Translations under genes and position numbers: made by a program | Shown: piece after piece, positions 36,951 through 63,400 of the stretch | Numbering within the stretch: position 1 is the first letter of the stretch | Layout: each line of letters opens with the position of its first letter | From: Isurus oxyrinchus | Lineage: Eukaryota | Reading direction: 5' to 3' | DNA length: 64,000 nucleotides | Assembly (NCBI GenBank): GCA_026770705.1 | Contig: JANJGN010000131.1 | Coordinates: 682,001 to 746,000 of the forward strand | Notes under the pieces: generated by a model | The model's database searches: none | Told to the model about the DNA's origin: nothing | What the model saw: only the letters and a program-made list of their open reading frames with translations

Positions 36951-36959
36951 GAATGTGTC

Positions 36960-38110: not shown

Positions 38111-38129
38111 CAATGGTTCCCTGAATATA

Positions 38130-38365: not shown

Positions 38366-41300
38366 TCACCCATAAATTGAACAATGCGCTCTCTGCAGGG
38401 AACATTTGTCAGAGCTCCGCAAGGGATTATTTAGAAGTTTACTAGAAAAGCATCATATTACCGCTGCTTTAAATGTTATTTATAGATAATTATTTTAAAA
38501 TAGACTCTGCACAGTCACAGGCCCCTGTGTACTGTACCCAGTTCGGTGAGTATGTTTTTGTCAAGGAGCTGGTGATGCGATTGATAACTTCCAGCGTTTT
38601 TTCTTTTTGTTGCTTTATGAGATTTTCAGATTTATTTCCATGTTACATAGTTGCCTTTGAATTACTTTCATCTTTTTCAGCTTGTGATTACTGGCTCTAA
38701 TGGCTTAATTACAGTATCACTTTTTACAACCAACGCTTTGTTCAAATAACTTAAGTGTAAAAATTACAGTAATCAGGGATACAAGCACATCATTAAACCT
38801 AAATGAGATACGGACCAAGGTGTGGCTTAAAACAGAGCAATTCTATTTCATTGATTTATTAACCTCTGTTTGCTTTTCTACATATAATTTCCAATCCCTG
38901 TTTTGTAGACTCCGGCCGATCATAGAAAACACACTAATTTAAATCATGAAGTCTTCTTAATTTCACAAAGTTCAAATGAACATGTAATTAAGAAAATACT
39001 TTGAAATGGAAGTCGATCTGTAAGTTTACTAAGCTAGATATCGGGCATTGTTGTTTACGTGTCGTCTCAGAGGTGAAACATAATTGTTACATGTAACTGC
39101 TAACCAGACCTCCACTTTAATAGCAATTTCTCAAAATGCACAAATCCAACCAAGAGGATAATTACTTTTTATTTTAAGTTTCAGCTTCTTGTTCCATCGC
39201 TAGAACTCTCGTTTTTAAAATTTTTTTTATGTATTTGTAAAAAAGTGTGACACATGTTTTGTGATGGGTGTCCTGCAACATAAGTGCATCGGTTCCAAGA
39301 CTAACAGCAAATATGCAAACGGAAATGGTAGGTTGTTTGATAGTGACAGAGAAACTAACCAATCAATATGGACATTCATTTTGAGTGGAAAGGTTCGTCT
39401 CTTTTAAAGATAACAAGTTTATTTAATGTCAGGAGATCTAATTGTTCTAAATAAACATCAAAGAGGTATTTGAACTTAATCATTATTTAATTGTCATTGG
39501 GCCAGTTTGGTGCAGGTCACTTTCTAGTTGTGGACAAAAACGCCCAACACTTTAAGATTTTTTTTTTCGCGGTATGGCCAAACCTAACTCTGAATGGTGA
39601 TAGAAACCTGGAATATTGGCTGAACGGTACAATTCAAAATATGATTATGTCAGCCTGTTGCCTGAATTCTCTCTGGGGCAGATCTCATGCATCCGCATGT
39701 GTGTGAAGAAGACTTTACAGGATCGACAGAGCTGACTGTCTTTTTGTTGTTTCTGGTGCTTAGCTCGATGCCGGGTGTTCCATCGGTTCTATTTTCAAAC
39801 ATTTTCTCCCGCTTGCTAGGCCAGTTAAGGGGGAAGTTGTTACTCCACTGCATCTCCCTGGGCGTAGCGTCACATAGAGGCCAAACTTGGGGAAGACAAC
39901 TGAATTCCTTCATGAAAGTAAGTGAATGAAACGGATTGTGCTAATTCATGAGAATTCTGTAGTTTCATGGTCATCATTCATAATTGCTCTTTTTTAATTT
40001 TCAGCTTACTTTCGTGAACTGAATTTATGTTCATCAGTTGACGTGGTGGGATATAGATTTTCGTCCCTGAATCACTAACCTTGCGTTCAGATTTACTAGT
40101 CCATGAACCTGAGCACTATTCCAACATACATCAAGGCAATTGTCTACCAACGAGATATAGAGACTAGGGTTCAATTGAAAATATCAAAACTGAGATTGAT
40201 AGGATTTGGTACCATCTGCTTTAAACTAAGGTGTCCAAATGGAGACATTCTGCATATTAGCAATGCACTAATTGAAGGACAGGGAAGATTCCCGGACCAG
40301 AATATCCTTCTCCTTTTGCTATGGGTCAACAACTTCGGGATAGGATCCAAAATTGCACTGGTAAATGCATAACTGAAATCAGAAACCAGATATAGTCAGC
40401 AATTTCTGCAAAGCAGCGAGAAGGGAACAAGGAGGCATGGAACAGCACTAAGCAGATTGGAAAAATGGTCGCCAGTATAGTAAGTATGACTATATTTCAA
40501 TAGTGTGACAGCAAAAAGAATGTGATGCACACTGGACAGAGAGTGCTCCAATGCAATGGATGTGGACAACGTTTTAACTAGTTAGCACAGCATGAATAAA
40601 TAAACGCATCACACCATTCACAGTGGGGAGAGGTCTTGCACGTTTTCAATGACTGGACGAAGTTTCAACAAATCATCCAACGTCAGTAGCACAAGGATGC
40701 GGTATACTGCGAAACATTGCAAATGAGGACACTGTAGGACGGGACTTGCTTCCTCAGCCTGCCTGCTAATTAATCGATATATTCCCACTGAGAAGAAGTC
40801 GTTCACATGCTGCATGGATTAGGGAAGATGTTAACAGTTGTTTCTTCTTCTCACAGTCCGTTATGTTCAAGAGGTAGACGTGGGAAAAACCTTTCAAATG
40901 ATATGTAGTTGGCGAGTGACTCAGTCGTGCATTTCAATTGCTGACAGATCAGTGAAATTTCAAGTAGCAGCAGAATTTCAACTATGTTCTTACTAAAGAT
41001 GTTAATCACATCTGGGGTTATTTAATAATCTGGACAAAGGGCATATAAAGCGAAGGCTAATGCATCAGTTTCCACCTCGACATTGAAAGACCTTTCGAGG
41101 TATAACAAATAATTACTTCCTTACTCACGATCTTCCGCTGGCAACAGTGACAAATATTGAGACCAGTGCCACATTTTGCATTTGGGGAGCAGGGGAACTG
41201 CCATACCCCAAGCGCATGTGCAGTATTCACCCGAGATTGGGATAATGATCTGTTGCAATGAGTAGCCAATAACTTCTCTGGCGTGAGATTTTGTGGCTAT

Positions 41301-42069
41301 CAGGATGGCAAGAAATGTGTTTGTGCATGGTCAGTGGGGAGCGGCAGTGCTGTAAAGTGTGGCGAGTCATTCAAAAGCTCATTGGCTTTGGCAGAACCAA
41401 AAAATCTCGCCGCCGAGAGGGGCCATAAAATTCTGAATTTGCCATTACATTTGATGAGTGATTTTTAATAATTCTGTTGTTCACGATTGATGCCCGTTGA
41501 AAATAAGACACTGTAGTTAGACTCGATTTATGCTGTTTGATAATACTGGAAATGTCATCGTAATTGTCCGATTGAAAGTGTAGAAGGTGAATTACTGTTG
41601 TTCATTTTTTCCTGCCCCTTATTCCTATGTTTAATGACAAGGGTTAGCGAGTGTGAAGCGGTGACTAGTGAGTTGAGAACAATGCATGGGAGCAGCATTT
41701 GTTACCGTTTCAGAACGCCTTTTACCTATAAGGTATAAACCACACAAAGCAATAACATTGAGGTTCCTACCTTAAATTGTTAAATTTTGGTATCTAATAT
41801 CAGATCTAAGCCGGACTCTCTGTCTCCTACATGGATTTCCAAGGCCATGGCGTCTGGTGTGGATGTACCAGGCCCCTGCTCGCACGAGGAAGACAACTAA
41901 AAACTAACAGGGAGCAGGCAACGTTCTTTATACATTGTTAAATTCACACGGAGGAAAAGGGACTCAAAGAAAATGACGCTGTTTCCGGGAGACAAAACTT
42001 TTGTGTGAGATAAACAAAAGCAGCAATGGATGGAACACTCATTATGACTCATGTTGAATTTTATTTTTA

Positions 42070-42980
42070 TCATCTTTTAAATAATTTTACAAGCAGATTC
42101 AATGGGAATTTCACACCATTCTTTAACTCTTCTCTGAATTTACTCTGGGTCCCTGCATAAATAAACGGATTGATGCAAGAACTCAGGAGCTGAAGCATAC
42201 GTGCGCTTTCCTCCATAAGAAAATTTGATTCATTGAAATTGGTAGAGTCTGCATAGCTAAGATTCGCAATTCGGACATAGAGGAAGTTTATAAGTCTTAA
42301 CAAATGTAACAGGATGAAACTGCCCGAGATACAGAAGAGCAAAACGATGGACTTCCTTCTTTTCTGCATCTCTGGGTCACTTTGATTCTCTCCATTGCTC
42401 TGGATCCGGAGTCTCCTGCGGGCTCGACTGGCCGCTACAATGTGTCTGATGGTCAGAGCATTGAGCAGTAAAATAAGGAAGAAGGAGAGGCAAAGGTTTA
42501 AAACTGCGATTATGCTTTCATAAGCGACCCATTCAGGTGCCGTATAAAATATTGATTTTGAATTGCATTGCCAGGGTATATTGTCAATTATAAAGGCAGG
42601 CTCACACATAAAATACAAGGGAATGCTTTTAACGCAGTTAAGTACAGAGACAGTTGCTATCACCGCAGCCGCCATTTTCTTAGTGCAATATTTAATTTTC
42701 AGCTTCTGGCAGCAAATGGCTACAAACCGGTCAAAGGTGAAAGCCACTGTTACCCAGACAGAAGAATCGATGACTCCATAATTTAGCACAAGTCTGAGGC
42801 TGAAGACCGGAGTGATGGCCAGGAGACTGAACGGGAAATAAATACCTATAATCTGGTTTAATATCACAACTGTGATCCCGACAAGAAGATCCGTCACGGC
42901 CATGGACATCAAATAGTAAGTGATACATTTGGAGAGACCGCATCTTCCTCGAATCAGTATCACAATCACGACCAGATTAG
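42070..42980 (-). CDS. GPR139-like GPCR C, exon 2 (open reading frame intact)
   Basis: Acceptor gctgtcacag; ANLVVIVILIRGRCGLSKCITYYLMSMAVTDLL…SSVWVTVAFTFDRFVAICC…DPEMQKRRKSIVLLFCISG…LLSSCINPFIYAGTQSKFREEL…*; seven hydrophobic segments, DRF and NPxxY present. Confidence 0.93.
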
Positions 42981-44227
42981 CTGTGACAGCGAAACGCAGC
43001 CAGCAAATAGCCAATTTTGGGAAAGAAATTTAGAACATAAAATGTTGGAAATTCTCAGTCAGGCAGCAGTTGAAAAGAGAGGAACAAGTTAGCATGTCAG
43101 AAAGATGATCTGGAGGAAAATATCCTAAAACACAGCAATCTGTTCTGTACTGTCAGCAACACTAAGGGCTAACTCAAGGTGAACATTGAACGTCCTGCAT
43201 TGTGACCCTGAAATACAGTCAATGTTGTTCTCATTCAACGTTTAGAGACGGGAAAATATAACAATACTCTGAAACATTGGAAAATCGAAGGTTAACAAAT
43301 ACATTATAGAGCTTGAAAAAAGTTCAGCAAAAAAAAAGCTACTACTTAACTGAAAAGAATATGAAGGAGATGTGATGCATCTGAGTTGTAACAATTCGAA
43401 GTTAAAGGAACAAGGCTTCACAGCCACGAGTAAAACTAATCATGCTTACTATGGCTCAGTTTACAGCAATCTCACTTTTGAGTCAAAAGGTTTAGCGTTC
43501 AAGCCCAACTGTTGGACTTCAGCAACGTTGTACTGCCGGATATGCTATATTTCAGCTAAAACAAAAGACTGAGGACCGGTCGTGAATACAAAATCTTACT
43601 TAAGAAATAGCTGTTATTCACATTCCAGCGCAAGGAGCAATATATGCACATGGCAAAGTGAGGTAATTCAACAGCTGTGTCAATAACACCATAGAGCTAC
43701 ATTTACAGCGTGATAAATCAGCCATGGTGACAGTGTCAATAATACAATTGATTTACATTGCACTGTGATATTAGTGTGCTAAATACTTCACCCACATTAA
43801 TAATGACAATAACAACATCTAATTACGTTTAGACTGAGAGGCGGCACTGCTAAGTTGGCAGAAAAGTTTTATTTAAAGAGATGAAATGGCATTGGCGAAG
43901 CAAACATAGTAATCCCTGAAATGGAAGTAAGTATAGTGGCAATGGGAAGAAACTGTTCTCGTGAAGGGGAGAAATTGTAGCCTTAAAGTGGAGAAAAGAG
44001 ACCAGTAATGACCAGTAATATTGCAAGGAAAGGGAAGGTTTAATATCATTTAAAAGAAGAATGCACCAAACGTGGAGATAAGGATACTGCAAAAAAGGGA
44101 AAACATTATAAAAAAAACAAATTATCCTGTTAATGGGGTGAACCATAGAGAAGCAGTACAGCTAAATTAAAGAAGTGATAGAGTGAAAAATGATTCTGGT
44201 AACTGGTAACTAACCCTAATACTTTAC

Positions 44228-44306
44228 CTGGAATACCGATAGCTGCAAGAACGGGATAGTAAATGGCGAACACCAGACCTTTTGGTATCCCATGCATTTC
44301 TCTCAT
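44228..44306 (-). CDS. GPR139-like GPCR C, exon 1
   Basis: (MRE)MHGIPKGLVFAIYYPVLAAIGIP followed by G|gtaaag, phase 1; spliced product 326 aa from the ATG at 44297, or 329 aa from 44306. Confidence 0.9.
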
Positions 44307-44344
44307 AAGCTCCAAGTGCGCTCTGTGCTACACCGAAAGACTTT

Positions 44345-44415
44345 TAGATTTATACATGATGTCGGACTCTAGGGAGACAATGAGAAGGTTTGGCTTTTTA
44401 CATTAATTACACTAA
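44345..44415 (-). promoter_or_regulatory. Putative core promoter of GPCR C: TAATTAAT, O/E-like TCCCTAGAG, TATAAA
   Basis: TATAAA 44349-54, TCCCTAGAG 44367-75, GTAATTAATG 44401-10; aligns with 25730-25800. Confidence 0.55.
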
Positions 44416-45049
44416 CTGAAAAAAACATTTTAGTGCAGCTGCTGCCGCGCTCCCATTTATGTTTTTGATGGAATAGAATCTGTTTTCAAGGACACTGGCA
44501 CGGCTCCAAATTGAAATAATCAGACAGGAGAGTACGGTCCAAGTTGCATTTTTTCCTAAAATTTAAATAACAAGCCAAATAAGCGATTGTAATTGTGAAA
44601 GTGAGCACTGTGCATGAGCATCCATGGCTTTAAACCCCGCAGGAAAACATTACAAAGTTCTCACTCTTGATCATTTTTCAGCCCGTGTGAACACGGATCA
44701 CGTGTAATGTGGCTCCCTTTCCCTCCTGGAATGAGGAACCAATCAGTAGCCATCCACCCTCAGCCTCTCTGCCTGCTTGGACGTCAACTCACGACGAAAA
44801 CTCTGTAAATGAAACGCCAATGCTACGGGTATTGGCTTGCGTCCTATTTCTGTTTGGCTTTTGGATGGATTTGTAGCAGAATTATTGATCCAGTCCCACT
44901 CAAGCACCTCCATCACACTTTTGCCTGGTATATTCATGACCAGATCAGTATTGATCTCGTTCAACCCCTGAACTGGAAAATGAGGTTACGTTTGCTTTGG
45001 AATGTAACCCTCCCCATGCACTTACTTGCTCCATGTTTGAAATTTATAT

Positions 45050-46310
45050 TTTCTTCTGCCACTTTGATGTGGACACATCGGGGAATTGGCTATGGCCCAA
45101 TATTCAACAGAAGTTCACCAACAACCAGTTATCTTGAATACACATCCATGCACATCGTTTACTGGAAAGGCTCTTTTCTGTTCTCTCAGAATCTCAGTTT
45201 CTGCTGAATATGTTCGATTATCCCTTCTAGCTTTCTCCAATAGAGCTTCCAATGACTTCAGCCGAGTATTTCCAGCGCACCGTGGTTGACAGAACCCAGT
45301 GCCGTGCATGTAACATGTCTCACACTTCTGCTTTCACACCTTCCCCCCCTCCAGTTTCCACAATAGGCTTCTCCTTGCCCTTGCATACCATTCCACACAT
45401 CTCTTGTATCATTTCGTCCACCTCTGCATTTTCAAACTCATCCGGCATGTTGTCACTGCCCAATATGCCCAACTCACTTCTACTATTTAACATTGAGAAT
45501 GGGTCTTTGCTCCACTCCGCACTTGTCTCCTCCAAAGTCAATCCAACCCCTCCTTTTCCGAAGAACGTTCCCATGCACGCAATGAACATGCAACGCCAGC
45601 CCCTGTCTCCATGCCCTTCTCTCTGTCCTACGTCTCAAACAATGCTTCTAAATGGAAAATCGATTTGTTTGAACTTCTGTCCATTGAGTATACCCTGTTC
45701 ACTGCTCAATATGCAGCCTGCTCCACATTCTGGAGGTTAAATGTAGATTGGTGATAATTTCTCAGGTACATCCATTCGGTCCACAAGTGTGATCTTCTGG
45801 TCACTTGTCACCCTAATTATCTGTTCCATTCTCACTTTGACATGACTGTCATTGAACCCTCCTACTGCTCCAAGGAAATGGAACCAGTGCTCCAGGAGTA
45901 AAATCTCATATTTCCTTAAGGCACTTTCTAGGCTTTTGGATTTTCCATAAATTTCAACAAGCGTGATCACACCCACTGCATTTTTCTTCCTTCTTTGCTC
46001 TTTGTTATTGCGTTGGGAAAACATCTCTTGATTTTGATTCTGTTATAAACAGTTTGCCGTCTTTTAGACATTCCTCTTCTGCTTTTCCTTGTTCCACTTT
46101 GACTTCCACCATCACTGCTTTTGTCATTTGATTTTTCCTGTTTTCCCATTTACCAGAAGCATCTCCTTTTGAACATTTTTCCCCCAAAACCGTCTTTTGC
46201 CTCTACACTTGCATTAAAACTGTTCCATCTGTAACTTTTGACTGATTTGATGAAAGGTCACATGTTGCCGGATATCTTGAGTATTTCCATTGTTTCCTGT
46301 TTAATTCCAT
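45050..46310 (+). mobile_element. Old, decayed Penelope-like element (RT C-terminus, GIY-YIG and pLTR remnant)
   Basis: Residual matches to Penelope ORF 3' motifs (ttccagcgcaccgtggttgacaga; tgttcactgctcaatatgcagcctgctccacatt; aaatctcatatttcc.taaggcac) and a pLTR-like end (tgatgaaaggtcac…tgagtatttcca). Confidence 0.55.
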
Positions 46311-47544
46311 TCAGGATGTTTACATTCAGTGTAGAAATGTGCAGCTCGGCACGGTTATATTCACAGTGCGCACGCCTGGTTTGGCATGGTTACTTCCATT
46401 GTGGACTAGTACAATTCAGTTAGTGTAGCCATGTCAATCCCGGCAATAACGAAAGTGCACAGGTGTGTGAATTTACATTTTGTGTGGCAAGATCCAGTTC
46501 AGGACGTGTGTGCTTGGTGTTTTCAGTCTAAGCTCAGTCCACTCACATTCAGAAAAGACAACTTCCTGTTGAGCATGATTAAATTAATGATGGAGCGCTC
46601 CAAATCAACATGGTTATATGCCATGTAGAAAGTCCTGTTCAGCTCGTTAGCAATCACTGTTTAGTGGAAAACCAGTTTAGGGGATTATCACGCTGGTGTG
46701 ACTGTCCAGTTCAGTAAATTGCATTCACTGCATTCAGGTTAAATTGTGCACAGCTCCACTCAGTACGAACAGGCCAATTTCTATCCTGTTACACTGAATG
46801 TACATGGACGACTTTTTGCCCGATTATTGTCAACTTTGTCCAGTGGAACACAACTACGTACAATGTGCACAGCCCCGGCTGTGAACACTTTCTTTCTTGT
46901 AGTGGAAAATTTCACTTCAGCGTGATTACATTCCATATAGAATAATCAATTTCATTACTGCTGTATTCGATGGAGACAGGACTGGCCAAGCATGGTTATG
47001 TTTCGTGTAGATTTATGATTGTCTGCTCGGTGTTAATAAATGTGTACATGGACATTTGCATTCAGACTGGACTGGTTTAGTTCTGCATTCTTACTTTTAA
47101 TTTGAGCTTCTGTGGTTCACTGTGGTGGACAGTCCCAATTGATCACTGTGAACCTTTTAATTTCCCAGCAGCTATGCTTCGTGTGCAGATGTCTTGATCA
47201 GTGAGGTTACATTCAATTTGCGTAATTGCAGTTCTGTAGCATGATTTTCAGTGCAGACTGTTCTCGGCCGGAGAGATTTTATTCATTGTGATTTTCCACA
47301 CAAAATCTAGGTCTATTGTTACTGACAAAGGAAGGTTCATAGGCAAAAGTATCAGGGGATGAGGAGGTTCTGGAGACTTTGGAATTGTCTTCTCCAGAAA
47401 ACAAGAGTCGGCAGGGGCACTAAATATATTCAAGGCATAGTTAGACAAATTATTGATCGACAAGAGATCCGATGGTTACTCAGTCTGGCAGGAAAACGGA
47501 GTTAAGGCCAGGATTACATCTGTCATGAACTCCGATGGGTATTA

Positions 47545-48390
47545 CACAGCGTTGACAACAAAATGCATCTTAGGAGAATTGAATGGAGCAGTTAACAGCA
47601 GCAACAGAGTTAAAAGTGCTCTTCATAACAGTTAATCGATTGCAACTATTTGATAAATTTACGAATAAACATGTGGAGGGTAAACAAAAATATGGAAAAC
47701 TACATACCACTATCATTTATAGCTTCACGCCAATTAGAAAATATGCTGATCTGTAATGGTTAAGCTCAAATCGCCACAAAACAACACCCTCCCACAAATT
47801 ATGTTCCTTCTCCCACAGTTTGCTCTTTCAGTTATCCAACAACAATCCTTCGCAATGTCCTCTTCTTAACCAAAATATTTACTGTATCACATGGCTTGTT
47901 TTTGGCAGCACTTTGGATACAAAACTTACTGTTGCTTCCTTTTGAACCTTCTAAATACGGTGAAAAGCTGAGATCCAAATACAAATCGTGCGAATCAGCT
48001 GTCACCCCTGTCAATTGGACTGTATTCACATTACCGATCAACAAATTAAATGAGCTTTGTACATACCACAGCCATCGCGAGTTAAATTTATGTCGATATC
48101 AATTTAAATTAACATCTAGGCATGTAAAATAAATGACCTGTTTAACTAAGAAATTCTGGTTTTAATGACATTATTGAAGTAACAATTAAACTACATTGTG
48201 CAGCATTTGTATCATTACCAAAACGTCCGTCAACACAAGACACAGAAATCGCGGACACACATAAAACAATCTTGAATGTTTTGCTGTTGGAGGACAGCCA
48301 AACATCCGGAGAAGCTAGACAGTAAACATCTGACCCTCATGCTTCACAGTTGAACAAACATTGAAAAGACCTAATTCCGGAAAAACAAAA
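47545..48390 (-). repeat. Copy 1 of a duplicated unit of about 850 bp, possibly a decayed leader plus V-set Ig-domain exon
   Basis: Colinear with 49421-50285 over its full length; minus strand shows ttgacag|..VTADS.DLY, LEGS and INDSGM*FS. The duplication is certain; the Ig-domain reading is tentative. Confidence 0.8.
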
Positions 48391-48429
48391 CGTATAATTC
48401 AGATTCAGAATGTTTCCGTTTCGTATTTT

Positions 48430-48586
48430 GAGTGGCTCAGGAAACTGACAGGAAAATAAACAGCCGTAAACCAGCTTAATACCAGTGTAATGATAATAAC
48501 TTGGAGATCTGTCACCGCCATGGACTCTGCGTATCTGGAAAGACCACATCTTCCTCGGGAACGGATCACGATAGTCAACAAGTTAA
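48430..48586 (-). pseudogene. Truncated GPR139-like exon 2 fragment D (TM1-TM2/ECL1 only)
   Basis: (CT)n…cccttacag acceptor, then VNLLTIVIRSRGRCGLSRYAESMAVTDLQVIIITLVLSWFTAVYFPVSFLSH; homology ends abruptly and there is an internal deletion of about 3 codons. Confidence 0.85.
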
Positions 48587-49420
48587 CTGTAAGGGAGAGA
48601 GAGCGAGAGAGAGAGAGAGAGTGAGGAGAGAGAAGGGAAGAATTAGTGCTGAATCTCCCAGCTACAACGTCCTTTTGGCGGGAGAATGGTATGGCACATG
48701 GACCATCAATACTTCATTCAACGCTGGAACTGATTACTTTGCCAATGTATTAATGCTGGTCCATTTTTTATTTATATTGTCGCAGATGAAGTGGAAGTCG
48801 GAATATAAAATGACACAAAACACTACTTTCCGACTGATGTAAATTTTATGTAATCTAGAAGTAGAAGGAATTGATCTTCATTAAATTGACAAAAGGACAA
48901 CCTGAGAATGGCATAAAAATACAGATAAAAGCTCAGTACATTTATTCATTTATAAATACAGTAAATGATAACATTATGAAACGTTAAACCGCTATAACAA
49001 TGAAAGCAATCGAATGACAGGACATAAGATATGGGTAATAACGAATTCCTAATAAATATCAGAAGGAACCAAGGTACGATCAAAAAGAAAATTTGGACTT
49101 TGCCCCTGTGGAAGCAAGTCAAAGCGCATCAGAGGCTTTTTTGCAGTTCAGTGATTGCAGTAGTGGAAGATCAGGTCTCGCAGCAGTAGTGTGGATTTTC
49201 AACTGATAAAACAGCAAGGCCTTGGCTTAGAGCCTCGTCAGAAGGACGACAGAATAGACAGTGCTGGACAATCTCAGGGGCATGGAGCTCGGCTATGGAC
49301 ACGAGATCGGAAGTAGGGATCAAACCCAAGGCTTTCCGAATGATCACTGAGGTTTCAAAATTTAGTTGAGCTAAATAAAGTGGCTATGAGCATAATGAAT
49401 TCCGGCTTCGAATGTTACCA

Positions 49421-50285
49421 CACAGCCTTGACAACAAAGTGCACTTCTAAAGAGAATTGAATGCAGCTGTTAACCGCAGCAACGGAGTTAAAAATGGTCT
49501 TCATAACAGATCATCGACTGAAATGATTGATGTTAAAGTTACGCAATGCAAATCGAACAGCAATAAACATGTGGTGGGTAAACAATAACATGGAAAATAC
49601 TTACCACTATCATTTATAGTTTCACGCTAATTAGAAAATATGGTGACGTGCAATGGATAAGTTTAAAGCGCAGAGAAAAAATCTCTTCCACAAATTGTAT
49701 TCCTTCTCCCACAGTTTGCTCATTCAGTTATCCAACAACAACCCTTCGCAATGTCCTGTTCTTCTCTAAATTATTGACTGTACCACATGGCTTATTTTCG
49801 GCAGCAATTTGGATACAAAACTTATGGTTGCTTCATTTTGATCCTTCTAAATGCGGTGAAACTCTGAGGCCCACATACAAATCCTGCGAATCAGCTGTCA
49901 CCCCCTGTCAATTCAACTGTATTCGCACGATCCATCAACAAATTAGATGAGCTTTGTACACACCGCAGCCATCGTGAGTTAAATTTACATCGATATCAAT
50001 GTAAATTAATATCTAATCATTTAAAATAAATGACCCGTTTAATGAAGAAATTGAGGTGTAAATTACAATATTGAAGTAACAATTAAACTATACTATGCCG
50101 TATCTGTATCATTGCCAATAATCCTGTCAACACAAGAAACAGAACGCCTGGGAACTCATAAATCAGTCTTGAATGTCTTGCCATTGGAGCGCAGCCAAAA
50201 ACCTGTAAAAGCTACATAGTAAACATCTGACCCTCAAAGATTGACAGTTAAGCAAAGGTTGATGAGAACTAATTCCGGGAAAAAA
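49421..50285 (-). repeat. Copy 2 of the duplicated unit
   Basis: Colinear with 47545-48390; minus strand shows PQSFTA, LEGS, AMWYSQ and INDSGKYF in shifting frames. Confidence 0.8.
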
Positions 50286-51071
50286 ATATGTAGAATACAA
50301 TGAACAATGCCAGATAGTACAGGAAGCTACAGAGACAAGACGCATGCCCCTGTAAAAGCCATTACCCAGACACAAAACTAGAGAGACATAGCTCAGCCAT
50401 CTTTAGGATACAAAGGGTTGAGTTATGAGAGAATTCCCTTGAAAAGTTAAGACAAATGTACACTGTACTATTGAGAAATTATATTGGATTTTAAGAATAA
50501 CTTCTTCAAATCAATATTTGTTTGAATATCCAGATTGTTCAATGCAGTGGATTTATAATTTTATGCTATCTTACATAGGATTGCTAGGTTATATTCGATG
50601 ATATAGTATTGATATAGATATGAGTTGTAGCCTCATACTGAAATTCTCACGAACCCACATATAAGTAACAATATCATAGAAATTGTAAGTTTGGTTTCTA
50701 AGTGCGGATATTGGTAAACGTTTAAAGAGTTTTTTTCTTACTGTAATATACCTGTAGTAATATTCTACCCTGGTATAATTTTTCTGGTTCGAAAACTCTG
50801 AGGAGTGAAGATATTTTATTTCGGGTCCACGTTTATAGCTCGTAAAGCTGACTATATTATTTTAATGATCTATTTCTTTCTGAGATGAGGTTTTAAGCCA
50901 ACAATAACATTCAGTGGGTTGGTTTAACTTTCCGTGTGGTAAAGTGAGTAAAACCATAAACAGGCAGCCATAAAACCTCTTACCAATTTCTTTATAATCT
51001 AATTTACATCATCATCTAAAATCGACTTCATTAATTCTTCTTTGTAAAGATAGGGTATTAATAGAAGATGA

Positions 51072-51109
51072 CGTTTTTGTACAGCGTTCTCGCTCCTTGC
51101 TACACTGTG
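51072..51109 (-). other. Recombination signal sequence (22-bp spacer, 23-RSS class)
   Basis: CACAGTG-22 nt-ACAAAAACG immediately after …TYFCAV. Confidence 0.92.
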
Positions 51110-51362
51110 TGTACAGCACAGAAGTAGGTGGCAGTGTCTGTGAGACTCAAGGCTGAGATGGTCAGGGAGTTGCTTTTCAACAAACTTCAAATGACGGCTC
51201 TAAAGTCACTGTTTGCCGACACCATTAACAGCAGCTTTGGGCTCTGGTTCGGAGACTGAACGTACCAATATATCACAGAGAATGGGATGGTTTTGCAGCA
51301 GTGTATCAACATCGTTTGCTGTTCACCCGGATTCTGTAATGGATAAATTTGTATAACATCTT
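51110..51362 (-). pseudogene. T-cell receptor alpha/delta-type V pseudogene
   Basis: DVIQ…IHC…IYWYVQSPNQSPKLLL…I*SLLKSNSLTISALSLTDTATYFCAV; in-frame TGA at 51187-89; shortened domain; 5' boundary uncertain and no convincing leader found. Confidence 0.82.
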
Positions 51363-52179
51363 CTTTACATTTAACACACAAAGTGACAACTAGAGCAAAG
51401 CCACCAGCTCTAATCTGTCCCAACATGTATCTCAGAACATAGGAGCAGCTGTTTGACTTTCAACTCTACAGCCCTGCTCCATATTCAATTAGTTATCATT
51501 TCGTCTGATGCATAAATTTATTTGCTTTCCTTAGCCCAATACCCCATGATGTAATTGTGCTTAGCTAAGGAACATCTTGGAAATATAACGAAAGAAATAC
51601 AAAAAATTGTGTTTGTGTGTGTAGTCATTCATTCTTGTTTGAGTTAATAAAGAGGTAAGATACCCTTGAGAAAATAGAGCCTAAATGTGGCAGAGGACAA
51701 GGGAGTCTGCTGGGACTGTTGCAGGATGAGCAGCGACAGAGTTTATCAAGGCAATTGGGCACATAAGAAGAAAACTGGGTTTCATTTCTAAAGGGAGGAA
51801 AGCTGAAAATCAGAAAAGTTGCTTTTCTGATACACTGAACTTCGTTAGGTCACACGTGAATCTCTGTCCTAAGTTCTAGTTTCTATTTCGATGCATTTGT
51901 TTTTAATCTCATGACCCGAATTTTGAGATCATACTGGCCAGATACCATGACAACGATTTGTCTTGTATATCTAGAAATGAATAAAGTGGGTTTTGCCCCT
52001 ATATTAGTCTTTGGGTTACAGAAGTATTCGAGAAAACATATATAAGGAAAACGTCTCTACTTGTGGGAGATACTAGAAGTCGTAGCATACATATAAGATA
52101 GATGAAGAGTTGTACGGGAATTCTCTTACTTAGCGTAATCAGATGCACAGACTTGTTGGGCTGAGCACCCTGTTTCTGC

Positions 52180-52900
52180 GCTGCATATCCTGTCTAACTA
52201 CTTAACGCTTCGAATGGAGTCAAGAGCTTCGGATTCACAACCTTCTCCATGGAAGAAATTCAGTTTTCCCTCAAAAATAGCCTACCTCTAATTTTAAGAT
52301 TATATACGCTCGTCCTTTATTCTCCTATAAGAAGTTTTTTTTTCTGTATCTACCCTGTCAAACAGTTAAACGGTAAACCACCTCTAACAGGTCTCCTTTC
52401 AAGACTCGATGGTCAATGGAATACAACGGACAATTCTGCTACCCTTCCCCATAATTGCATATCATATCTCATGCATCCTGCTGGTGAATCTGTGCTGTAT
52501 TAACTAGGAAGCAAATTAATGTTGCCTTTGGTGAGGCGCAGAGAGTTGAATGCATTCATGCAGATACCGTCTGACCAGACAACTGAAGTCTAACTTTTGC
52601 TGCTCCATGTCCCAGTTACCTTCTATAAGGACTCACTTTGTTTTCGCCATTCTGATGGTATTTTCTGTCCCTCTACTCGCTTTCAATGATTGTAAAAGTG
52701 GACACTTAAGTCTCTTTAAATTCCTTCCTTTCTCCACGTTTAGGTTTTGGAGGTTCAGGGTGAAAGCCCTCACACCTGCACACAGTAAACTCAATCTGCC
52801 ACATTGTATCCATTCATTTATTCCGTCAACTTCCTCGTACAGCCACATACATAATTTAATTAAATATGCAATCTTGGGTGTATAATTCACTTTCATTTAC
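52180..52900 (-). mobile_element. Decayed CR1-type LINE 3' region
   Basis: agagcttcggattcacaacct…gaaatt…cctc…taattttaagatta…tcgtcct…tctcc and ttccattttgccattctgat-like motifs typical of the CR1 3' end. Confidence 0.5.
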
Positions 52901-55900
52901 TCCAGGTCATTAATAATGTTCGTAATAACTATGCTTACATATTTGGAGGGACAAAATGTAATAAAATTTTGCACATTCTGTCAGTATTGTTTTACACATT
53001 TAAATACTCACATGTTATAAAACTGACTGGAATGGACACTAATATCAATCTGAAATGTTCTTGCATCATGTGCATTGAAAGGGCCTAGATTCTGCTCAAA
53101 GTATTGTTGCAGAATTAGAGAAATGTAAAAGGGACTAAAGGATAGGCTGGACCTGCTTCATTGATTCATACATCCGAAAATCAAACGCACCGACAGCTTC
53201 TCCCGCATGTTACTTCGCCATTGCTGGTCACGAGGGTAAGTTCCATCATTTAGGAAAGGAAGTAATACTCAGTGCAGCGCCGTCCTCAAATACAACCCCG
53301 AGGTTATTGCTGGCGGGTTCAGCAGCCGAGGTTCTATACATTAGCGTGACAGAAATTCGACCCGCATCACAATAAGAGACTCGTGTTTCCCTTAAAATCA
53401 ATAATATATATTATTTCAATGATAGTTTCCTCATTGATCTGCTGACACTGCAGGAACAATTGATCAGGACAGTCTGATTTCTAAGCGTTCGGCTTTTTAA
53501 AAAAAATGTCTTTATTTGAAATATCACCGAGTGGATATAGGATATTTTCGTACATTTTGGAAAACGCGCGTGAAATTTTGAATGTTGATCTGCTTTATAT
53601 TAAATGAAGTTTCCAGAAGATATCTTATAGTATTGTTCACCATCTCTGGGGTATTAAAAACAAATTGTGTTTGAGACACTTTTTACAGCACTCAGTGTGA
53701 CAATAGCAAGAAGTGCCTGCCATGCTTAAGCTATTACGAGTGACGATCCACAGATGAGTCAACATTAGTACATTCTTCCTAACGCTGATTAACAAGCAGT
53801 GAATTGTTGGTCCGGGGAACAAAGCAGACATCAGGCCCCATTTAAAGTCAACTATTATCTGCTTCCATTTTTAAAACTGCAAACACTTACATTTTGTTTG
53901 TTATTATTATTGGTTAGAATGCAAACCAGTTAGGACTTTTAAAGCAACTTTTTTTGGTTTAGCTTTTCAACCGGGCCGTATCTCTGCAGTGCTGAGTGTT
54001 CGCAAGCACAAATCCAAAGAGCTACACGGACAATCATGGTCCGGAGGTGTATTTACATAGTTTTATCTTTTAATTACGTGAATAAGTCATAGAAATGTTC
54101 ACGCATTAATGACAGAAAAATGTCTCATATTTAACATTAAATTAGCTCGCCTTCGGCACTGAGCATGGAGACGGAGTCTTGTTGCATGTAATTTATGTGC
54201 CATTTGGGAAGTCCAGGACGATTTGTTTGTCCTCTTTCTCAACACAAGCAGGTGTACCTCCAGTTGCTCGTTGTCCAGCTCAGGCTCTTTGAGCGTGAAG
54301 AAACGTTCAGGCCACATGGAAGGCTTAGAATCATCGAGACCGCACATTAGGATAATTTCAATTGGTTTTCGGGCCATAATATCTAGCTTTGCAGATTATT
54401 GGAAGTTATGCAATCCACTAGTGACGTGGGAAATAATTGACGCATTCTGGTGATACAGACACTCACATAACAGGTAACACTTATCTCGGAGAAGTATTAA
54501 ATTCTCCATTTTGGTAGGTATAGTGAGGAAAGGTAATATGGATTAAATACGCGATTTTATCAGGGGGAAAGAGCTCCTGGAGTTATATGAAACCAAAATT
54601 TGTAGGTCACAGGACGAACAGAGATGGCTGCTCAGGATCATAAATTTCCTAATAGAGGAATGATTTTCCTCTAAGCCTTTGTCAAATACTGGGTGCTAGT
54701 CCAGACTTAGGGTTTTTGGTGTAATTAATATATTACGTGCTAACTAAGAGATCGGCCACTTAGAACTGAGGTCGCAATAAATGTTCACACTCAGATAATT
54801 GTGAATCATTGGAAATCTCGACCGCAAATGGACTGTATGTTTATTCAGGACAGATATCGAGAAATCAAAGACAATCAAATAAATGTTGCAAGGAATTTCA
54901 GTCAATAATTTTAGTCTGGATTCTAGCGAGTGACAAAGGAGCCTGGAGTGTCAGAATAACCTAATCTTGCTTCTGTATCTTATCTATTTTATCCATATGA
55001 ATAGGATAGAAAAAATATTAATTCTAACATTCTCTGCTCGTTTTCGTCATCTAGAATAGAACAGAGATGGTAATGTGTGGGATCTGTTTCGTCCTGATGC
55101 CTTTGTAAGACATGTGACAAATATGGCAGACATTTCCTTTTATCGATGTGTTGTAATTTTAGTGAATGGTCTCCTTTTATGTTAAATTTATGTTATCTGA
55201 CAATTTAATAAGTTCAAGGCCATATGTTTGCATTCATAGTCATCACCCATACATAGAAAAATAATATTGATAACAATTTCTCATATAGATTTTCAAAGGA
55301 CTTTCTGCAGGTTTAAAATGTAATACCTATAAAATGTAATACCTATGAAGGCAGATATGGGATAGCAAACTACGTATGAAAACATATTTCATGATATTTT
55401 AACATAATGCAATTTAAATTTATGGGTTTCAACATTATTGCCATTGTTTGTGATGCATCATTAAATTCGATTTTCCACCTGGCTGAAATCCGTCTCCACT
55501 TGTTTCTGAGTGTTTTAATGAACAGAAGCGCATCATTAACAATGTTAACGGTATGAATTTTAGAATAGCACTGAAATTAGTCATCGGTTTGGCACTGATT
55601 TTTTTTTCTGAGTTCAGGTGTAGTTTCTACGCTTTGAAAGTTTGAAGTTGCAGAAGGATTTTATTCATCATTTGCATTTAATAGAGTGTTTCGGGCAACA
55701 CAAGTTTCTGGGGAATTCCTATTACAGCTCCCTGGTTGAAGAGGACCGGCTGATGCGTACCTGCCCTAACATCAACCCTTTGACCATTATTTTCTCTCTT
55801 ATTACATGTTACGTGTTCCAGACATTACTTCACCAGGTTTAGCTGCGAAAAAAATCAGCTTTAGCAAGGATCACACGAAAAACTTTGCCCTTGGCTGAAC

Positions 55901-56504
55901 TGCCAATCTAATCATTCAACGGACGACAATTACAGCGCCAAACAGGGACTCCCTGCATTTCTTATGTCACCTGCCTCGATGGAGGCATTTTCTGAAGTTA
56001 TACCGTATGGACCTGAAGGTTACCACATACCCAAGAGAGATGAAGACAAGCTCATTCCTGACTTATCTACAGTAAGCAAAGTGACCTCCCAAGCAAATAA
56101 ATCTGACCTTGATTGAACTGATCTCCCTTCACCGCTTGGAAATGCTTTCAGTTAAACTATGCGTTATGCACTGCAACTCACGTCATCAACAAAGTTTTTT
56201 TTTTAAATCACTATAATGTAAACCCAGTCCTTGCTGAAGTCTTTCTTTGCTATTTCACTAGAGATGCACCAGAGAAATATGACTTTCATGTTCGGATCGA
56301 TAACTTGGAAACTAAATCGAACTCAATCCACTCTATAGGCCATGTTGATACATTTGGGCCTTTGGTACAGTTTGCAAATATTTATCTGAACCGCTACATT
56401 ATATTTGTCCTGTGACTCTGACAGCACACCGTAGTGTTGTTCTTCTCACTACCAGGCTCCACAGTCGCAATGAGAGCTTACCTCCAAGTCACAAGGGCCC
56501 ATCA

Positions 56505-56543
56505 AGTTATTGTACAAGTGTCGGGCTGGTTCTAATTGCTGTG
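56505..56543 (-). other. Recombination signal sequence (23-bp spacer)
   Basis: CACAGCA-23 nt-ACAATAACT directly after the V coding end. Confidence 0.85.
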
Positions 56544-56854
56544 AGCATCAATATGCAGTAATACATAGGCTGCGTCAGAGAGCCGCAGTTTGGAGAATTT
56601 TAAGGTAATGATGGTATTCGTAGTGACCAGTACAGACGAGAAAAGACTTCGACCAGAATGTGCTCTCATTTGGCAACCAGCCGAAACCCTGTGAAGTAGA
56701 ATTTGTGATTCTTTGCCCGGGTATTGTAGGACCCAGAATAAGCTGAAGGAACCTTTGGTACTGAAATAGATGCAGTCTGAAATTGTAATGCCTCCTTTTG
56801 TCCAAACCACTGTCAGGAGGCGTTGTGTCACAGAGATTTCCTGAGTCAGGCCAG
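56544..56854 (-). pseudogene. T-cell receptor delta/alpha-type V exon, pseudogene
   Basis: Acceptor catttaaag; GLTQEISVTQ…DCIY…SLFWVLQYPGKESQILLHR…FSSVL…LKFSKLRLSDAA; a 1-nt insertion precedes ATG TAT TAC TGC (MYYC) and shifts the second Cys out of frame. Confidence 0.87.
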
Positions 56855-56935
56855 CTTTAAATGGAAAATGCAAAAGCTATCCCATTTATAAAGTGCTGTT
56901 ACGTTTGGTTCAAAATTACTACCAAGAATACTTAT

Positions 56936-56993
56936 CCGTGATAAGTGCTCCAAATACGGCACCGAAAAAGAGTAAGCGCACTGCCGTTTTCAT
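56936..56993 (-). pseudogene. Leader exon of the 56.5-kb V segment with a mutated splice donor
   Basis: MKTAVRLLFFGAVFGALIT followed by G|ATAAGT (GT>AT); 81-nt phase-1 intron to the V exon. Confidence 0.8.
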
Positions 56994-58129
56994 TAACACA
57001 GTAACCTATAGAAACTGGCACAAATTGACCTCTGAAAGTAGCCGCATTGAGGGTCGATGTGTCCCCAGTGATATGTCATAATGTTCAATCTTTCGGGTAA
57101 AACACGGCTACGAGTCTCCAGGCAATGAGAAAGGAAATGTTACAATCGCACAAGCTGCAAGCATCAAAAATCCAAACAGGATAACGATTTTATTCAGAGG
57201 GAAGGAAGCAATATATTTTTATAGTATCTAATTTAGGTTATTCGCTCTCGACGTATTTGTGAACTTGTTGCAATCACTAACAGCTGGACATTACGATTGA
57301 ATTTCACCAAATGCACTGAAGTTCACCAACGTCTTGTATATAATGTAGCGTGTCACAGAACGTGGCATAAGTCAGTAACTTGCACGGGATATTTTGTAAA
57401 TATTGAACCTTTCTTTTTCTGTTTGAGTTCCATTAAAGGCACTAGAATATTAGAGTCCTGCACGAAGTTCACAAAAAATAAACAAGGGACATATAAATAA
57501 AAGGTTTCCCCTGTGGACAATTTTGTTACATTATTAGTTACCAACTGCTCATCTAAACGGTACTTTGTATTTTACTTCCTTCGGTGACATTAACAAGTGC
57601 AATAACTTGCATAGTGAATGAAATGCTAACTATATCGCTTTTGACATAGCAAAGCTTCCATGAGACCTGAAACACACGTGGGCATTTTTAGCCGTTGAGG
57701 TGATGTTAAAACCACCTCGTGAGGTGACGCTTCTCGCCGCTGCTGTAACCTGGGAGCAACAGTTGCGGTACAAGGTGGGACAGAACCAGACAGGTGCACT
57801 TCCGGCTCTAATGGCGGCTCCTTATCTCCAACTGAGTGGTGACAGAAGAAAAAGACTGAATGGAAAGTAGGGCAATTCTATGAGACAAAATATTCAAAGA
57901 AAATGATTAAACATTTGAAAACGCTGGTGACACTACATGTTCACTCTCCAAGTGCATTTCTGGGGAACTGATTATAGAATTTATTTATTTTTTTAAATAA
58001 AGGACATGAATTAGGATCGGAACAGACAAGGGGGTGGGGAATGTTTTCATGGAAAACATGAAACTAAGGCTGCTCTTTACATACTTTACGTGTAAAGTTA
58101 CGCCGTGCAACATCACCTCTTAAGAGCAG

Positions 58130-58500
58130 ACAATGGCTTAGTAGCAATGTCACCAGAGTAATTATTCAGACACTCAGGCTCATCTTTGGAGGATGCCTAT
58201 TCAAATCCCACCACAGAAAGCTGGTAAAATTAACTTAACAAAATCTGAATTTATAATTCATTTCAATGATCCTGTCTGTGAATTATCAATGATTGTCACA
58301 AAACCCATGTGGTTCACTGATATCCTTCAGGGAAAGAAATCTGTCGCCCTTACCTGGTCTGGCCTCTATGTGACTACAGATTGATTGTTAACTGCCCTTT
58401 GATGAAACACCCTAACAAGCCATTCAGCTCAGTGACATTTAGGGATGGACAGCTTATGCAGGTCTTGTCAGCGACGCCAATATCCTATGAAAGAACTATA
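58130..58500 (+). mobile_element. tRNA-derived SINE copy
   Basis: tggcttagtag…ttcaaatccca head; aaaacccat.tggttcactga.atccttcagggaaag.aatctg..gcccttacctggtctggcct core; agggatggacag tail. Confidence 0.78.
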
Positions 58501-59527
58501 AGAAATTTAGGAAGCACGTCAGGAAACTTTAGCCCAGCAAACCCCCAAAAAGCAGCAATGTGATCCTGACGATGTCACCCCTTTTTATTATATTGACTGA
58601 GGATAGATGTTCACCAACAGATCAGGCAGATCTACAGTTTCCTCCCTTCCATCCTACTCACCTTCCTAACTTCATCCTTCCTCTCCCCTTCCTGATTTCG
58701 TTCTTCCATTCCTCCCATCGAAATTCTTCAATATGTAATGTGAAGTTTTCACTGTCACAACTGAATGTTGTAGCCCACAACTGATACACCACAACTGTTC
58801 TGTTATTGAGCAGATTCTGTGTGACTTTAACACTGTCTATTCCTGCACACGCAGGTATACCGCGGAGTACCAAGTTATAGACTTGTGAATATCAAATGCA
58901 GTTTGCCATTTTATACAATAGATATTGATGTTGAATCTGTAGACTGTGTATTCAGTGTCAAAAGGTGGGATGAGCCACATTTGCAATAAACGAAATCAAA
59001 AATAAAAGTACATCTAAAAACCTCAGCATTTCTGACAGCAACAGCGGGGAGCAACACAGTTATCGTTTGGAGTCCGCATAACTCTTCAACAGAACGTGCC
59101 TGCTGGTCCGAATAAGCGTATGCAAATGGTTGTAGTTTCTTCATCTTTGCCCCTTCCCAATGTTGACAACACATTCCACCATTAAAGTCATGTTCAGACG
59201 GAGTCTGCCGCTCTGCCAGCATGAAGTATTAATTCAGGGCACTGGGAGAGCTGCAATGCCCTTCTTGAAATATGCCAATGAATCATTTATGTGTAAAGGA
59301 GGAAGCAAACCGGACTTCAGTACAATACATTCGAAAGCTCCCACAGTTGTACACCGAAATGCCAGTCTACATTAAAAACACAATCTCCAGACTGGGACTT
59401 AAAATAACATTTTCTGATTCTGAGGCCAGAGTGCCACCACTGATCCACAAATCTGTAAAGGAATAACAGCAGTGTGACGGCTGATTGAAGCAGGGAATTC
59501 AGAGAATTCACAACAACTGGAGCTGAT

Positions 59528-59566
59528 AGTTTTTGTACCAGTGGTAAGGATTTATGTAACGTGGTG
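59528..59566 (-). other. Recombination signal sequence (23-bp spacer) with a non-consensus heptamer
   Basis: CACCACG-23 nt-ACAAAAACT after …SAVYNCAAMK. Confidence 0.82.
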
Positions 59567-59874
59567 CTTCATAGCCGCGCAGTTATACACGGCTGAGTCA
59601 GAGAGCTGGGTGTCTGTGATGTTCAAAGGGATGTTTGTGTTGCTCCTATCCTGTACGGCTGAAAAGCGCTTTGCAAAAGCTGGTGCATTCTTTTCATTCC
59701 CAGCCGTGTGTCTGAGCAGCATATACTGAAGGCCTTTTCCCGAGTACTGTACGTACCAGAATAGGTAAGCAGCTGTGTATGTCGCTGGGTAGATACATGA
59801 CAACACCGCAGTATCTCCTTCACTCACTGCTACAATTGAGGGTGTTTGGGAAAGTCTCTCCTGTTGGCCGCATT
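59567..59874 (-). CDS. T-cell receptor delta/alpha-type V exon, open reading frame
   Basis: Acceptor ttttccag; CGQQERLSQTPSIVAVSEGDTAVLSCIY…YLFWYVQYSGKGLQYMLLRH…AFAKRFSA…LNITDTQLSDSAVYNCAA; Cys23, Trp41 and Cys104 present; followed by a 23-RSS. Confidence 0.93.
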
Positions 59875-60343
59875 CTGGAAAACAATAACAGAATGTTATC
59901 AATGCAACTTTTAGATTTTTTTCATTCGGACAAAATAAGCTTTCCAATGCACTCGCACACGCGCGTACACACGGGCTCACGTTAAATCATTCCCTTTAAT
60001 ACAACGGTTGACTGCATTTCGAGTGTGAACGACAACAACAAAAACAGGGAGCTTCAGCGATTTCACCCCTCAGTTAACTGATCCCAGGCCATCATCGGTG
60101 TAATTTCCTTCTGGCAGTGTTCAGCCAAGGCTACCGTTTCTGCAGGAAATGGAGAAGCCCTTCTCCGGCCCGCTGAGACAGTGACAGGTCAGCTTGTGAC
60201 TAATGTAGATACTGTACGCTCACTCACTGACCAGTGAGTGAAGCCGTGGAAGCTGACCTCATCAATGGAGTGAAGAAAAATTGGAGGAAAAATAACAATA
60301 CAGTTAACAAAATAAAAGCGTTACAATCGCATGAAATACTTAC

Positions 60344-60425
60344 TTGGTTGAACATTTATGAGGAAAAGGAACACTTTGACGAATATTATTCTTGTCCAGG
60401 AGACACACTGGCGATCAGAAGACAT
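60344..60425 (-). CDS. Probable leader exon of the 59.6-kb V segment
   Basis: MSSDRQCVSWTRIIFVKVFLFLINVQP followed by A|gtaagt, phase 1, in frame with the V exon (K-C-G-Q-Q); hydrophobic core IIFVKVFLFLI. Confidence 0.68.
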
Positions 60426-63400
60426 GTTGAAGTTGTATCCTGTGTCAGAATTCCATGCTGTACGGAAGTATGTGATGTATATTCAAGACATTTGTTACAT
60501 CCTACCACCACGTTTAGCTGCACATGAGTATGGCTCCGAGATTTATAAACAACACAAAAATTGCAAATGGAAGTTTCCTCAGTTTGATGTCTTCCAGCAG
60601 CCGATAGGTGCGATGCTGGCAGGGGTGGGGCAGACAAACAAAGGCAACGAATCAAAATTTTAAAAAATCCAAATTCATATCTATAGCCCGGCCTCAATAT
60701 CGAGGTACATCAATGGCATTTGTTAGTTAATAGACACAATTGATCTTTAATATTTCATTGACTCCAATAAATGCTGTTCCTTACCAGATGCAAGTTGTGT
60801 GATGGACACCAATATAACATTGGTGTCATGGACACTCATATAACAATCAACACTGCGCATTGTTATTCAATGCAGAAAGAATACACTTTGTTTTTTGTTC
60901 GGACAGAACTTCAGTATTTCTGAAAAAGAGACAGGTCTCAGCTTATCACCCTGCACTCATCAGGAAACTCGCAAGAATAAAAATACATGGGAGGGGGGAG
61001 CACAATTTATACTGTATGTGAGGAGAATGATGATTGGTTGGCAAGTGGCATTTCCCTGAATAATGCACCACCTATGGCGAAGGACAGTTAACTGCCAAGA
61101 ATTGTTTGAAATTTAAGCCAGACAGCTTGACCCTGATAGGTTCAGGCTGACTCGTTTCTCATGATGATGAAGAAGAAGATGAAGATGATATTGCTGATCT
61201 AACTGGTTTGCTCTCCGGAGGTCCGGCAAAGACTGTGTATGTCGAATGCCTCCCTCCCCGCCCCCACCATTCCGCCCCCCCCCCAACCCCGCCACCACAG
61301 CGCCCCCCTCCCCTCCTTTCCGGCTCCGTGCTGTAATGAGACTGGTGAATCTGGTTGCACCAATCTATGGCAGAGCTACCCAGCCCCAGTTAGGTGGACC
61401 AAAACTGAGCACAGTTCTCCAAATGTGTTGTTAGCAAAATCTTATATATTTGCAGCAAAGCTTCGTTACACTCCTTATCCAAACCTCTTGCGACGGCTTC
61501 ACAAACACTGTTGATTAGTCTTTGTTATTAACCAGTTTGAACTGAGAAAAAAAAACATAAAGACATTGTTCTCCTGCATATTTTTGGCTTTTCCCTTTCT
61601 CTCTGTACGTATTTAATTCGAAGACTGACAGAGAGCTATAGATACAAAATGGCAACTGAAAAAAACACTATGTTCCTCCGAGTACTGAATTAAAAGTGAG
61701 AGATGGATTTAGTCTTCATTGTATTGAATCGGAGCTAATCCATTGCACAGCTATGAATTCCATGTCAGAGCAATAATCGATCAAGAAACAACCCTGGCCT
61801 AATTAACCAGAGCAAGAGCGAGAATATTCATCACACAGAGAGATCAAGGCGAGCAAATGAGAAAAAAAAGAGCTAAGGATAGAGACAGAGTCAAATAGAC
61901 AGAGATAAATTGAAGGAGAGTCCTAGACAAAGGAAAGGGAAACAGGCATAGAAACTGACAATTAGTGGAAAGAAGCTGTACATTCATTTCACAATTCCAT
62001 CTCATTATTCATTCATAGTTACTGGGAGACAGCACCTTCTGAAATTATATAAAGTCCTTCAATAGTTCAGAGTGTCCCAGGTTGCTTAACGACAAGGGCG
62101 TATCTAGTGAAGTATAGTCACTCCTTTAATCTAGTGATAGAGTTAGAGGAAAATACAGAATCTGTTTAAATAACATCTTAAGAAAGAGATATAAACGTGA
62201 TTTTTTCTTTCCATGTATTTACGATGCTTGATGAAGATCCAGGAGATGTAAAGGTCTTTTGAATTTTCAACTTCTGCTCTGTTAAAATTTCACTCGTACA
62301 GCATGAAATTCACAGAAATTTGGAACAAAGAATCAGGCCTGTAAGCATTCTCCGATCAATAAGATGTTTAATTTTTTATGTTCTAAAAGCGCAAGGAGAA
62401 GTTAAGGAAGTTAAACAATTATAATGAAATCCTTTGAATGATTATAACTGCTGCAAGCTGGAGGGGTCGTTGGATACCCGCTTCTTAGTTTATTGTCAGA
62501 GAAACCAACGGATCTATGATCAAAGGTAATTAACAGCTCTCAGTTACTCTCAGGCAGCATAAATCATGCTTCCTGCTCCAGTGAATCTTGTCATCTGCTA
62601 CTTGATGACATAGTTTAACCGTAGACCACAAAACGTTAAACGAAAACTTATGTGTCACATTCCCACCTCCTTGCATAGGAAGAACCAGATTAAAATAACC
62701 TGGCATCAAGGCGGAGATAAACAGACTCTTGGTCAAAAAAAAATGTTGAAGATCTGAACTATAATAACACAGGCAGGCATGCGCACAGGCACTTGTCAAA
62801 GAGGCTACACAAACAAACACACACACGTACACATATAGGCGCGCTTGCACACACGCAAACACGCACGTACCCACACAACCACATGCATTTCGACATCAAC
62901 ACGTATGTATCTGTATATATTTTATGTCGTTTTAAATGGAAATAGAGGCGGACAAGCTGCAAGAACATTGGCTGCTATTTTGACTTATTTTATTAATGCA
63001 CAGTCTATCAAAATGGAGAACCCAACAACACTGTCAGGGTGCAAGGAGGAGGGGAGTAAACATTGCTCATACACCCGTGATACCACCACCACCGTGTATC
63101 GCTAGTGGTGGCGCTGCAGTTGTTCCCTCAAACAGTTCAGGTTCATATTCACTTAACAAACGTTTACATTCAAGCAGTTACCAAGACCATAAGGATCCCC
63201 AAACACAGGCTTTTATGCCTAACATTTCAGAAGGCACACACAACAGTATTAAGTTGATCTTTTATATACCGCTTGGTGATGAATATCAAGGTCACCTGCT
63301 CAACGACTATCTATTACTCTTTGGTCCAGTGACTGATCAGTTGCCAGTCACATCTGTGTCCACAATTAGCTACACGTGACGGCTGGCTAAGTTAGTTTAA

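Follow-up and report, generated by a model that had tools for sequence, protein, structure and literature searches.

Do the three T-cell receptor (TCR) variable (V) segments found beside a cluster of G-protein-coupled receptor (GPCR) genes in the shark Isurus oxyrinchus belong to a working antigen-receptor locus, and could rearrangement of that locus remove the neighbouring GPCRs? The segments, here called V59, V56 and V51, lie in a 64,000-base stretch that we refer to as the window (positions 682,001-746,000 of the 1,389,050-base contig JANJGN010000131.1, or C131, in assembly GCA_026770705.1). An initial annotation, made from the letters of the window, had described a GPCR cluster on the downstream side of a TCR alpha/delta V array and considered what would follow if diversity (D), joining (J) and constant (C) segments lay further left. 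We conclude that the window is very probably a single copy of a segmental-duplication module present many times over, whose three defective TCR alpha/delta V segments are neutral passengers beside GPR139-like genes, away from the D-J-C segments.

Defective V segments in a repeated block

The geometry first described was confirmed. All three V-set exons are on the minus strand and point toward the GPCRs (Table 1), and the nearest, said to lie about 2.5 kb from a GPCR fragment, is separated from it by 2.47 kb, measured from the end of the V51 recombination signal sequence (RSS). The assignment to the TCR alpha/delta type also held for each exon. TCR alpha chains were the best single-domain PDB matches of V59, and in a tree with the TCR alpha/delta V segments of this genome the three exons fell into three separate clades, 31-43% identical to the nearest sampled array V segments. 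The tree had 81 rows after removal of near-copies, drawn from all of contig C242 and 240 kb of contig C26. Protein-database searches with V59 gave no close relative (best 46% among 150 matches listed), which is weak evidence given the word filter.

The window holds no array, however, and none of its three V segments has the intact leader, splice sites and frame of a functional TRA/TRD segment. V59 carries YNC in place of YYC, and a leader scan found no hydrophobic leader in the window copy and none common to the other copies. In V56, a one-base frameshift precedes the second Cys in 28 of 28 copies, and the leader donor has been lost in the window copy. V51 has an in-frame stop at 51,189-51,187, a lost splice acceptor and a 12-bp deletion relative to the copy on C26. 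The three 22/23-RSSs reported initially were of unequal quality when scored against consensus motifs. That of V51, with a 22-bp spacer, is the sole site in the window within one mismatch of the consensus, whereas those of V56 and V59 have four mismatches each, a quality shared by seven sites in the window. The V59 heptamer reads CACCACG or CACCATG in all 28 copies.

A genome search with V59 listed 150 matches, and the top 30 were close copies (67-100%) on 11 contigs, 17 on the plus and 13 on the minus strand. G42, the intact GPR139-like gene of the window, had 38 full-length copies (89-100%) among 130 matches listed. A G42-type GPCR stands at a fixed position in 23 of the 30 V59 copies; it lies 38-52 kb upstream of V59, inverted, in 22 copies and 17-18 kb downstream in seven, the window included. 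The placement of the GPCRs on the downstream side is the layout of 7 of 30 module copies and not a locus property. Twelve of the 30 copies also have an IgM last-C exon on the same strand, 132-185 kb downstream of V59. Of the V59 copies fetched, the most divergent lies on C26 (5.96 Mb), and 17 Mb separate it from the first array V match of that contig.

Selection was estimated as pN/pS, the ratio of non-synonymous to synonymous alleles per site, from allele counts against the majority codon rather than from a tree. For V59 (28 of 30 copies), 13 synonymous alleles on 70 sites and 44 non-synonymous alleles on 236 sites gave a ratio of 1.0. The values for V56 (28 copies) and V51 (7 copies) were 0.94 and 1.52, and with a range of 0.94-1.52 we rejected protein-level selection on the V segments. 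Exon 2 of G42 (22 of 39 copies) gave 0.36 (91 alleles on 205 sites, 113 on 701; p < 1e-4) and was broken in one of the 22 copies. These allele counts indicate that the three V segments evolve neutrally and that the adjoining intact G42 is under purifying selection. Together, multiple copies, fixed neighbours and neutral evolution are the pattern of orphon V segments carried in a segmental duplication.

Location of the D, J and C segments

The observation that no D, J or C segment lies in the 51 kb downstream of the V segments proved correct, and none was found within 311 kb, to contig position 422,001. Profile searches of C131:422-846 kb detected neither C1 exons nor IgH-like V segments nor J-like sites in these 424 kb, compared with 92 J-like sites in 810 kb of C242 (810,000 of 814,430 bases covered, no N). 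The D-J-C locus itself was found with an exact 12-RSS pattern, which gave 38 matches, ten of them on C242, against four for the reversed control. Its two C exons are called TRDC and TRAC from their position, their C1-set likeness and the same order in stingray (PMC12227049, Table S1). A TRAC-like exon had one genome match, on C242; a TRDC-like exon had two, on C242 and at C26:29.9 Mb; neither had a match on C131. A search with PF09291, the Pfam family for the constant part of TCR alpha, gave a single weak match (E 0.73), on C5. The only IgM last-C exon on C131 lies upstream of V59, at a distance of 558 kb, and none lies downstream.

At contig scale, then, the window V segments are not in cis with D, J or C segments, and the chance acknowledged at the outset, that they are orphons unlinked to any C region, turned out to be the case. 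We rejected a D-J-C set to the left of the window, given the empty 422-846 kb interval and the lack of any TRAC- or TRDC-like match on C131. Because the D-J-C unit is on C242 and the 311 kb downstream yielded no such segment, the proposed somatic excision of the window GPCRs is unsupported.

A second TCR-delta-like unit, with an IgH-like V, a D, five J and a C exon, occupies C26:29.90-29.93 Mb on the minus strand, in the middle of a V/IgM array. Its C exon is 85% identical to the counterpart on C242, and no TRAC copy was found for it.

Origin of the module and competing explanations

V segments of immunoglobulin (Ig) and TCR loci can be stranded outside D-J-C by segmental duplication, and such orphons are non-functional. 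The window segments share both the stranding and the loss of function; they differ in their higher copy number, and, unlike typical orphons, they are probably still on the antigen-receptor chromosome. Since they are defective, neutral, duplicated and on a different contig from D-J-C, they are likely passengers. We propose that a block of TCR V segments and GPCR genes was separated from the working V array in the distant past, as the 31-43% identity of the V segments to array segments suggests, and that the departed V segments then lost function. Both the frameshift of V56 and the heptamer defect of V59 occur in 28 of 28 copies and so predate the amplification. Unequal crossing-over and inverted duplication may then have multiplied the block, alongside IgM miniclusters, GPCRs and zinc-finger genes, within the Ig heavy-chain (IgH) part of the shark antigen-receptor complex. 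On this account the GPCR and IgM genes, but not the V segments, would be under selection, and the window GPCRs would escape excision by TCR rearrangement.

Several observations weigh against this account. C131 (1.39 Mb) and C242 are separate contigs whose relative placement is not fixed, and the first 342 kb of C131 were covered by genome-wide searches only. V51 keeps an RSS close to consensus, and RAG does not depend on an intact V. Alleles assembled twice may account for some of the near-identical copies. In addition, the V59 frame is open in 23 of 28 copies, and across those 28 copies the exon shows about half the divergence of the sequence on either side (0.15-0.19 versus about 0.3 alleles per site), at silent and replacement sites alike. 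Pure neutrality predicts neither the open frames nor the low exon divergence; gene conversion or a constraint at the DNA level is possible.

If the three V segments were instead the distal end of a working TRA/TRD V array, with D, J and C further left and the GPCRs deleted by rearrangement, their TCR alpha/delta type and RSS-like ends would be expected, and shark V arrays do extend over many megabases in mixed orientation (PMC12227049, Table S1). We nevertheless regard this as extremely unlikely, with no D, J or C on C131, with all three segments defective and neutral, with the module on 11 contigs in both orientations and with the C26:5.96 Mb copy so far from the array. It is highly improbable, too, that the V59/V56 pair joins the D segments of a downstream IgM cluster to make TCR-V/IgM chimeras, a mirror image of the known joins of IgH V segments to TCR delta. 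The 12 copies that face a same-strand IgM cluster and the unusual uniformity of the V59 exon would fit such joining, but the V59 heptamer is defective in every copy scored, no common leader was found for V59 and its pN/pS is 1.0, V56 is frameshifted throughout, and the window copy has no downstream IgM, the nearest being the exon 558 kb upstream.

The joint between V segments and GPCRs could also be a misassembly, or the copies could be assembly artefacts. The region is highly repetitive and some pairs of copies are nearly identical. Short-read contigs from four runs (one from organism A; three, from three studies, from organism B) matched 29-30 of 30 bins of the window at 41.5-61 kb with at least 85% likeness, and no piece among the contigs listed spanned the GPCR-V junction. 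The 17-18 kb spacing nevertheless recurs in seven places whose sequences differ by 2-15%, the 424 kb analysed have no assembly gap except one masked run, and the copies bear mutations of their own; we judge an artefact very unlikely. The duplicated module thus stays our preferred reading of the window.

GPCR genes inside the V array and around the module

G42 belongs to a large family: 2,276 of 4,761 candidates matched it at E 1e-20 or better, under the NCBI name "probable G-protein coupled receptor 139". The best 120 of the 2,276 matches are all shark proteins of about 325 aa, 62-74% identical to G42, so that G42, a 7tm_1 protein, exceeds 60% identity to named shark members of a chondrichthyan GPR139-like group. 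Likeness to human GPR139 is distant, although this was the best PDB match (weak, E 2.7e-8). A search for RNA records containing the G42 gene listed none, which speaks neither for nor against its expression. We found no relevant paper on this family or on its link to shark TCR/Ig loci, subscription papers being outside the search; PMC5931798 and PMC3964593 added nothing on such a link in their available parts. Catshark members lie on a 133,841,611-base record, a length that would fit the catshark chromosome listed in Table S1 of PMC12227049, whose coordinates reach 133.54 Mb.

One GPR139-like gene does lie between working V segments and D-J-C, as the window genes do not: C242:212,002-212,904, on the minus strand, 378 kb upstream of D. 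Its exon-2 frame is open over 312 aa, and exon 1 was not found. On C242, 68 of 106 V-like matches are on the minus strand, opposite to D-J-C. Upstream of the gene are eight open V segments with good RSSs, two plus and six minus; joining of the two plus segments would delete the GPCR, and joining of the six minus segments would invert it. A frameshifted relative lies among V segments at C26:25.18 Mb, with one GPCR in 80 kb there and none in another 120 kb. The best 64 of 150 matches listed for it (67-100%) comprise 40 on C26:23-40.3 Mb and 24 on eight other contigs, five of which also carry V matches and IgM exons. This array subfamily is 53-54% identical to G42. In this genome, then, GPCRs are interleaved with TRAV segments across the complex as a whole, of which the window is a decayed offshoot. 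Tandem NAR-TCR-like V pairs at C242:380-549 kb are opposite in orientation to D-J-C and would join by inversion.

In mammals, olfactory receptor (OR) genes stand among TRAV segments (OR10G2 and OR4E2; Olfr1507-1509; PMC4574546, available part). The parallel drawn initially with this arrangement applies to the true locus, where a separate GPR139-like subfamily sits among real V segments (C26:23-40 Mb and C242), but not to the window, whose V segments are outside the working locus. Mammals have two or three ORs at the 5' end, while the shark has dozens of class A GPCRs of an unrelated family (best PDB match GPR139) throughout the array. One might suppose that a large, selected GPCR family on shark antigen-receptor chromosomes, amplified together with TCR V and IgM clusters, includes an array subfamily that V(D)J joining inverts or deletes in every T cell and that is co-regulated with the antigen receptors as a clonally varied set of lymphocyte receptors, convergent on the OR/TRAV layout; we think this unlikely.

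The elasmobranch antigen-receptor complex links IgM, IgW and IgNAR clusters to TCR alpha/delta, and its TCR-type V exons, many of them pseudogenes, are scattered between IgM clusters in either orientation, some of them a long way from TRAC, according to the available part of PMC12227049. The window resembles this description but has three particular dead V segments amplified about 30-fold; the same part of that paper describes no repeated module of V, GPCR and IgM, and the available text and supplements gave no match to GPCRs. The occurrence of TCR V exons between IgH clusters of sharks is already published there; for the GPCRs no paper was found. The shark antigen-receptor complex consists of recurring blocks that hold TCR V, IgM and GPR139-like genes, and these offer a concrete route by which TCR V segments arrived between IgH clusters. 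Dead orphons make TCR V segments look more numerous than they are and can lead annotation astray, and the complex draws attention to a large receptor family under selection.

Table 1. Features of the window (positions numbered from its first base) and the D-J-C unit of C242
Feature	Position	Strand	Details
V59, TCR alpha/delta-type V exon	59567..59874	-	Open frame, splice acceptor intact; Pfam V-set 2.3e-16; PDB; leader scan; copies
V59 23-RSS, degenerate	59528..59566	-	CACCACG-23-ACAAAAACT
V56 leader exon	56936..56993	-	Donor AT in place of GT in this copy
V56, V pseudogene and RSS	56505..56854	-	V-set exon 56,854-56,544; CACAGCA-23-ACAATAACT
V51, V pseudogene and RSS	51072..51368	-	V-set exon about 51,368-51,110; CACAGTG-22-ACAAAAACG
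GPR139-like exon 2, 5' fragment	about 48435..48600	-	Fragment D of the initial annotation
0.9-kb piece, two copies	47544..50299		81% identical; no family match; travels with the module
G42, intact GPR139-like class A GPCR	42070..44297	-	Two exons, 326 aa; exon 1 44,297-44,228; exon 2 42,980-42,070
G28, GPR139-like gene, broken	25851..28990	+	Exon 1 25,851-25,920; exon 2 frameshift near 3' end
G11, GPR139-like exon 2	10879..11761	-	Two stops
Inverted-duplication left arm, part	1..46240		
Spacer (59 kb) between arms, left part	46241..64000		Contains V59, V56 and V51
D-J-C unit	C242	+	D 590.2 kb; J 595-609 kb; C exon 616.9 kb; J array 657-743 kb; C exon 749.5 kb

The window lies largely within an inverted duplication, in which C131:656.9-728.2 kb is mirrored at 787.6-846 kb and the two arms share 94-96% identity along most of their extent. 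The Ig remnants reported initially were not recovered: beyond the three V segments, IgM/TCR C-exon and V-exon profiles found none in the window (local C1 and V profiles plus a small Pfam scan; IgW and IgNAR C exons were not among the profiles). The duplicated 0.9-kb piece had no noteworthy Pfam, Atlas or PDB match; it contains faint WYxQ and DxGxYxA-like words, and its 40 scored copies are all on module contigs or C20.

To the left of the window, C131 carries C2H2 zinc-finger genes, a second module (343-442 kb) and five tandem V51-like pseudogenes (527-539 kb), which look identical, four of them arranged as a 3.14-kb tandem repeat. At C20:75.9-78.2 Mb, on a 94.9-Mb contig, G42-type GPCRs and IgM exons occur without a close V59 copy. 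Finally, C38:13.29-13.41 Mb and C26:0.69-0.81 Mb share their C1 exons and GPCRs, displaced throughout by about 12.607 Mb, which reflects either a recent duplication or a haplotype overlap linking C38 to C26.

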